NCBI RefSeq assembly: GCF_046105845.1
Contig: NZ_CP151004.1
Reading direction: 5' to 3' (one strand)
Origin: Escherichia coli
Lineage (GTDB): Bacteria; Pseudomonadota; Gammaproteobacteria; Enterobacterales; Enterobacteriaceae
Length of the DNA: 64,000 nt
Part shown: piece by piece, positions 28,779 to 29,193 of the stretch
Layout: each line of letters begins with the position of its first letter
Position numbering within the stretch: position 1 is the stretch's first letter
The notes under the pieces: model-generated
The model's database searches: none
Seen by the model: only the letters and a program-made list of their open reading frames with translations
What the model was told of the DNA's origin: nothing
Made by a program: the position numbers and the translations under genes

Positions 28779-29019
28779 TTAAACCATCACCAGCGATAAC
28801 TCTTTGCCAAGCGCCTTTGCCGCGAGCTGGACGGCGTCGATTTTTGTCGCATGGTGCAAATTAAATAGGCGAGTAATCTCCTGTTTAGGTTTGCCAATTC
28901 GTCTGGCTAACTCTTGCTGAGTGATTTCTGACTGTAAAAAAGCATTTAACAGCAATACCTTAGAGGCGACGCTCAAAGGCACTTCAATAAAGTGATCGTG
29001 ACTATTTAATGGCGAAGTT
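28779..29019 (-). pseudogene. hicB: HicB antitoxin remnant: C-terminal HTH DNA-binding domain only; no hicA
   Basis: Minus-strand frame reads ...SPLNSHDHFIEVPLSVASKVLLLNAFLQSEITQQELARRIGKPKQEITRLFNLHHATKIDAVQLAAKALGKELSLVMV*, the HicB C-terminal region; an in-frame stop lies just upstream (about 29020) and no HicA-like ORF is present before yncJ. The track calls a 67-aa ORF from an internal GTG. Confidence 0.6.
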
Positions 29020-29193
29020 TATCTCCGTGTGTAATGTGCTCGAAAATAGCACTTAATCGCCGCAACGGCAGAATGCAATGCAAAATCAGGAAGGAAGATT
29101 CCAGAATTTCTTTGCGCTAATTTGCAAAACTGAATAATAACCTAAAGAAACTATCGGCATCATAGCGGTAAAAGGTAAGAAAAAGGTGGCAGG

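Follow-up and report, generated by a model that had tools for sequence, protein, structure and literature searches.

A hicB remnant between yncJ and ydcR in Escherichia coli, probably a pseudogene left by a 445-bp deletion in the hicAB operon

Introduction

In E. coli K-12, the hicAB operon (hicA/yncN, b4532; hicB/ydcQ, b1438) lies between yncJ and ydcR. A preliminary description of a 64,000-nt stretch of E. coli DNA (contig NZ_CP151004.1 of assembly GCF_046105845.1; referred to here as the window) reported that, at this same locus, the toxin gene is missing and only the end of the antitoxin gene is left. Two readings were offered, a decaying antitoxin and a retained orphan repressor domain. 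The questions raised by the locus are what exactly was lost, how widely the short form is distributed, and whether what is left still serves any purpose. The analyses reported here favour the former reading, and we consider it very probable that the locus is a dead remnant of a chromosomal hicAB type II toxin–antitoxin operon, i.e. a decaying pseudogene.

The general state of the locus is already known: in a preprint that covers 6,220 genomes, hicAB appears among the toxin–antitoxin genes lost in phylogroup B2, and the remnant is annotated as a pseudogene in >1000 RefSeq genomes. A literature search for a specific account of the truncated hicB in extraintestinal pathogenic (ExPEC) strains returned nothing useful. 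What is new here is modest, namely the precise limits of what was deleted, with the probable promoter/operator region, the presence of the deletion beyond phylogroup B2, and the secondary decay events together with the numbers of genomes carrying each.

Identity and content of the remnant

The window is an Escherichia chromosomal segment, with ydcS among the genes around the remnant. The features of the locus are listed in Table 1.

Table 1. Features of the hicB remnant and its surroundings (positions in the 64-kb window)
Feature	Position	Strand	Evidence
ydcR	27294–28700	−	
Spacer between hicB stop and ydcR start, 78 bp	28701–28778	−	
hicB remnant: S61–V138, stop codon TAA (28779–28781) and one base of codon P60	28779–29016	−	Translation, identity, Pfam, PGAP
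Formal 67-aa ORF from GTG 28980–28982 (HicB codon V72)	28779–28982	−	ORF list
Alternative 65-aa ORF, start TTG 28974–28976 (HicB codon L74)		−	
Deletion junction, 1 nt microhomology (G/C at 29017)	29016–29018		Alignments
In-frame TAA directly upstream of the remnant, derived from the former hicA upstream region	29019–29021	−	
Surviving portion of the divergent yncJ/hicA intergenic region, −45 to −221 from the lost hicA start	29017–29193		
yncJ	29194–29424	+	
rlhA/ydcP	from 29516	−	

On the minus strand, the translation of the remnant corresponds to the last 78 codons of hicB when compared with intact HicB. It starts with SPLNSHDHFIEVPLSVASK, ends with ELSLVMV* and reads in full SPLNSHDHFIEVPLSVASKVLLLNAFLQSEITQQELARRIGKPKQEITRLFNLHHATKIDAVQLAAKALGKELSLVMV*. 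All 78 residues are identical to those of the intact HicB of strains 746 and 504237 (WP_001270286.1), to the C-terminal HTH/dimerisation part of K-12 HicB, and to residues 61–138 of the HicB that has been crystallised (PDB 6HPB/6HPC; 100 % identity). The match to HicB found with tblastn has E = 3e-49. Pfam HTH_3 scores 33.2 bits on the remnant, against a cut-off of 23, showing that the HicB-type C-terminal DNA-binding domain is present. The N-terminal, HicA-binding domain of HicB (partial RNase H fold; PF15919/PF15970) was absent from the remnant in the Pfam search; PF15919 matches full-length HicB at residues 3–67, and the 78-aa remnant matches HTH families only. EcHicB is reported to dimerise via its C-terminal β-strand (review PMC11594946). 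The remnant holds both the Xre-type HTH and the C-terminal dimerisation β-strand, i.e. everything that EcHicB uses for DNA binding and dimerisation.

A hybrid codon precedes S61, and the next codon further up is an in-frame stop. No match to HicA was found by tblastn anywhere in the 64-kb window, including between ydcR and yncJ. The preliminary description had therefore read the locus correctly in confining HicB to its C-terminal DNA-binding part on the minus strand, in placing a stop immediately upstream, in finding no hicA, in the 67-aa length obtained from a GTG start, and in the identity of the neighbours ydcR and yncJ. The interval that it assigned to the truncated locus, 28779–29193, needs to be divided: 28779–29016 is hicB, and the rest, 29017–29193, is retained intergenic DNA of yncJ and hicA and not hicB.

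Extent of the deletion

The deletion was mapped by alignment to loci with an intact hicB (strains 746 and 504237) and to the short form in FDAARGOS_1266, and in a nine-sequence alignment. Alignment to a hicAB-positive locus had been proposed in the preliminary description as a way to define what is missing, and it revealed a single event, as the window differs from the intact loci by one clean 445-bp gap. The gap takes hicB codons 1–60, which encode the HicA-binding domain, the 45-bp hicA–hicB spacer carrying the hicB ribosome-binding site, all 177 bp of hicA, and 44 bp upstream of the hicA start (ACTAATGTTTACTTTGTTGATATACTCAGCGGCAGGGAGGCGAT). The hicA Shine–Dalgarno sequence is included in these 44 bp, and an extended −10 element, TGATATACT, lies in them or at their edge. 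No piece of the deleted 445 bp has been relocated elsewhere within the 64-kb window.

Upstream of hicA, intact loci have a perfect inverted repeat with 7-bp arms, GTAAACA-N4-TGTTTAC. The deletion removed the spacer and the second arm of this palindrome, and the surviving arm reads GTTTAT (29017–29022). A SNP at 29022 in the window lineage has changed a former GGAGGT to GGAGAT. No operator-like palindrome was found elsewhere in the window beyond the number expected by chance.

Reviews describe two promoters for E. coli hicAB, a distal promoter, P1, that is CRP-S/Sxy-dependent, and a proximal promoter, P2, with the HicB operator hicO; the P2 transcript is stated to begin at the hicA ribosome-binding site. 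Based on this description, the deleted 44 bp should correspond to P2 and much of hicO, and we infer that P2 and half of the operator-like palindrome were lost with them. The retained 177 bp of intergenic DNA presumably holds the yncJ promoter and P1. A scan with TGYGA-N6-TCRCA for a CRP-S site found nothing within two mismatches in 29017–29193 and only chance-level matches overall. P1 is probably still present upstream of the remnant and there is no terminator between them, so transcription of the remnant is possible.

Start signals for the 67-aa ORF

The preliminary description advised a search for promoter and Shine–Dalgarno signals upstream of 28982. Neither was detected. A scan of 29017–29193 found no sigma-70-consensus promoter on the hicB strand. 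The predicted pairing with the anti-Shine–Dalgarno sequence is +0.3 kcal/mol before the GTG and −0.5 kcal/mol before the TTG, compared with a background mean of −2.1 in the window, and neither codon is thus preceded by a Shine–Dalgarno pairing. This is a weak test of translation because ydcR, a genuine gene, has none either. The GTG is simply the codon for valine 72 of HicB, and it is GTA in strain 504237 and in Escherichia marmotae. GenBank submitters have called the B2 version of the ORF a 67-aa 'transcriptional regulator' or 'antitoxin', e.g. AGY84326.1 in JJ1886.

Distribution and origin of the deletion

A 53-nt probe that spans the junction, and is unable to seed on intact loci, was used to search the complete E. 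coli genomes in RefSeq (n=5426). The identical junction was found in 1087 of the 5426 genomes, about one in five, with every match in a single piece. The carriers belong to phylogroup B2 and others, and include UTI89, Nissle 1917, ATCC 25922, ST131 strains and E2348/69. A base-identical junction is present in a divergent group of 28 genomes (AST20, O166:H15 and several chicken isolates) and in clade-I-like Escherichia genomes, whose identity to the window is only 96.4 %. The exact junction sequence of the window itself was in no complete RefSeq E. coli genome, and the best match was 98.1 % over the 53-mer.

Over 20 kb, the window lineage is no more than 98.7 % identical to any of the 5426 complete RefSeq genomes, and it therefore represents a deep, poorly represented lineage of E. 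coli. It matches the draft genome GCA_018015415.1 (DADWIC010000025.1) and a Logan assembly at 100 % identity over 7.4 kb.

E. marmotae has an intact hicA–hicB pair at the same position, in the order rlhA-yncJ-hicA-hicB-ydcR. The intact state is therefore ancestral and the short form is a derived deletion. We infer that the short form goes back to one old deletion event and was later moved among backgrounds by homologous recombination. The contrary proposal, that the palindrome is a deletion hotspot at which the same junction arose several times independently, can draw on three observations, namely that the sequences flanking the junction fall into four or more haplotypes (those of B2, of the 28-genome group, of clade I and of the window lineage), that no SNP is private to the deletion alleles, and that one breakpoint falls within the perfect 7-bp inverted repeat. 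However, the ends have a single nucleotide of microhomology in common and lack a direct repeat, which makes four base-exact recurrences very unlikely, and over such a time depth homologous recombination easily reshuffles markers that are 160 bp away. Multiple origins are thus extremely improbable.

Decay versus constraint

The DNA equivalent to the remnant in FDAARGOS_1266 is annotated by PGAP as a hicB pseudogene, 'incomplete; missing N-terminus', and decay is seen in other carriers of the junction. In the 28-genome group, S89 is replaced by a stop codon and K127E is also present. A further deletion of 144 bp, which removes most of the HTH, was found in 27 genomes, E2348/69 and MP1 among them. 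K79N and P103H are present in the main allele of B2 (exact 90-mer in 546 genomes), and Q88P in that of clade I.

In the remnant, 5 non-synonymous and 3 synonymous lineage-specific point changes were counted over the 78 codons. With only eight events, this ratio cannot be told apart from the 77 % of non-synonymous changes expected under neutrality (p = 0.27). Intact hicB, represented by two haplotypes from E. coli and by E. marmotae, has 3 and 13 such changes over this stretch (16 events, p = 1e-6). The contrast is in the expected direction, with small counts, and the neutral-like ratio, together with the nonsense allele and the 144-bp deletion, indicates that selective constraint on the remnant is relaxed.

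Most of the 1087 carriers retain an open ORF. This is uninformative because only 35 of the 702 possible single-base changes (5 %) create a stop in the remnant. The 78 codons in the window are unchanged in protein from functional HicB, i.e. this lineage has acquired no coding change yet, and this is a point against regarding the remnant as dead.

Interpretation of the remnant

Relative to K-12 hicAB, the remnant lacks hicA, the ribosome-binding site of hicB, HicB residues 1–60 with the partial RNase H fold, and probably the proximal promoter/operator, and therefore no toxin–antitoxin function is possible. It has the features of a pseudogene, as its homology covers only part of hicB, the native start is missing, and the full-length form is ancestral at this locus. 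Among the two readings originally offered, a decaying antitoxin gains support from the PGAP annotation, the disrupted alleles, the neutral-like substitution ratio and the probable loss of the promoter/operator region under HicB control, and nothing positive was found for a retained orphan repressor.

The most probable course of events would be a single old deletion, with nearly no repeat at its ends, reaching from 44 bp upstream of hicA to hicB codon 60. One step took the toxin gene, the part of the antitoxin that neutralises the toxin, the original ribosome-binding site of hicB, half of the palindrome and probably the HicB-repressed P2. The simultaneous loss of toxin and antitoxin function offers the cell a safe route to shed the module. 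A 238-bp stub of hicB 3′ coding sequence stays behind, which lacks a dedicated start signal and is probably silent and drifting. The stub probably persists because it is short and neutral; it adjoins the control regions of ydcR and yncJ.

An orphan regulator would be a stand-alone Xre-type HTH protein, of 67 aa from the GTG at 28982 or 65 aa from the TTG at 28976, that is translated from P1 or read-through transcripts, dimerises by the C-terminal β-strand and binds DNA. Such a protein is physically plausible because the HTH and the dimerisation strand are kept, the copy in the window is unmutated and P1 probably survives. The HTH_3 domain is complete and above the Pfam cut-off, the dimerisation element is inside the retained part, the window copy is identical to functional HicB, most carriers keep the ORF open, and some GenBank records name it as a protein. 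The formal ORF also resembles the stand-alone Xre/Cro-C1 (Pfam HTH_3) regulators in that it consists of a single HTH_3 domain of typical size. Unlike them, it has no recognisable start context, intact operator or evidence of selection. There is no Shine–Dalgarno sequence, the start is not ATG, and the GTG is an internal valine codon, with GTA in its place in other alleles. The cognate palindrome has been halved and there is no similar site in the window, and the native hicB ribosome-binding site and probably P2 are deleted. Full-length EcHicB is already a weak operator binder by itself, according to a review. Alleles with a nonsense mutation, a secondary deletion or radical replacements have become fixed in sub-lineages, the substitution ratio is neutral-like, and the population data show no sign of selection for such a protein. 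We therefore regard an orphan regulator as improbable. A more specific form of it, in which P1 transcripts made under Sxy/CRP control are translated from the GTG or the TTG into a constitutive dimeric HTH repressor of 65–67 aa that is insensitive to HicA, is more doubtful again. If it were true, the protein could repress hicO-like operators on incoming plasmids or prophages that carry hicAB, or other targets, and about one fifth of E. coli would carry an antitoxin domain that was exapted to act as an independent regulator.

Retention of the DNA for a function in cis, either as an upstream control region or long leader of ydcR, or as part of the divergent yncJ promoter region, is equally doubtful. 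No terminator-like site was found between the remnant and ydcR, and the 78-bp spacer includes promoter-like hexamers, in the form of two overlapping matches for ydcR (28761–28734 and 28752–28724). There are also no differences from strain 746 in 28636–29021, compared with about 1.5–3.5 % in the flanks. However, 386 bp without SNPs is a normal fluctuation at this level of divergence, and 144 bp of the remnant are gone in the 27 genomes described above, with several substitutions in others. Furthermore, in the intact loci these elements are 445 bp further apart, with no apparent harm. A decaying pseudogene thus remains the favoured reading of the remnant.

Comparison with other forms of the locus

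The hicB pseudogene of phylogroup B2, as annotated by PGAP in UTI89, Nissle 1917, ATCC 25922, ST131 strains and E2348/69, has the same junction and architecture as the window. The window allele is on another flanking haplotype (97.5 % identity over 601 bp), lacks the B2 replacements K79N and P103H, and has its own SNP at 29022.

A second common loss of the toxin at this locus, found in 809 of the 5426 genomes, is due to a 22-bp deletion within hicA that shifts the reading frame. These alleles keep the full-length antitoxin and both promoters, and are true orphan antitoxins, whereas in the window the antitoxin is truncated too. Together, the 445-bp and 22-bp deletions leave at least 35 % of complete E. 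coli genomes without a working HicA at this locus. In strain 504237 (L003:892–1046), the 22-bp deletion that frameshifts the toxin is flanked by a 4-nt repeat, CGCA.

On its own the remnant matters little, but it is a textbook case of the safe loss of a toxin–antitoxin module by one deletion, and the scar is found across much of the species, comprising B2, the 28-genome group, the clade-I-like lineage and the lineage of the window. A 67-aa 'transcriptional regulator' or 'antitoxin' reported at the remnant by a gene caller is very probably an over-call, and we recommend that surveys of toxin–antitoxin systems score the scarred locus as hicAB-negative.

Intact loci contain a further ORF. A strong Shine–Dalgarno sequence, GGAGGT, is followed after 8 nt by an ATG, all of it inside the palindrome upstream of hicA (strain 746, L001:1107 downwards, minus strand). 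This ATG opens an ORF of 54–56 codons that overlaps hicA in another frame and is open in E. marmotae too. The start of the ORF is deleted in the window. In the allele with the 22-bp deletion, the ORF is fused in frame to the C-terminus of HicA (...LRKAILKQLGLS). It may be translated, or may be a by-product of the overlap.

Other features of the surrounding DNA

The five SNPs at 29022–29169 that are specific to the window were considered as possible signs of an imported recombination tract or of accelerated decay. This was rejected because a 17-kb comparison with strain 746 showed that their density, ~3 %, is normal for the neighbourhood.

A REP-like palindromic element is present at 29425–29464, right after the yncJ stop codon. 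It corresponds to a sub-threshold Rfam match to naRNA4 (24.9 bits; gathering score 59.5), and nothing beyond this match was found when 28000–30000 was scanned with Rfam.

The region 20650–21900 of the window is very divergent from strain 746, with about 175–220 differences per 500 bp compared with about 10 elsewhere. It is near the CatB-related acetyltransferase/patD end of that locus, and may represent a gene that was replaced or is highly variable, or else an alignment error across an indel.
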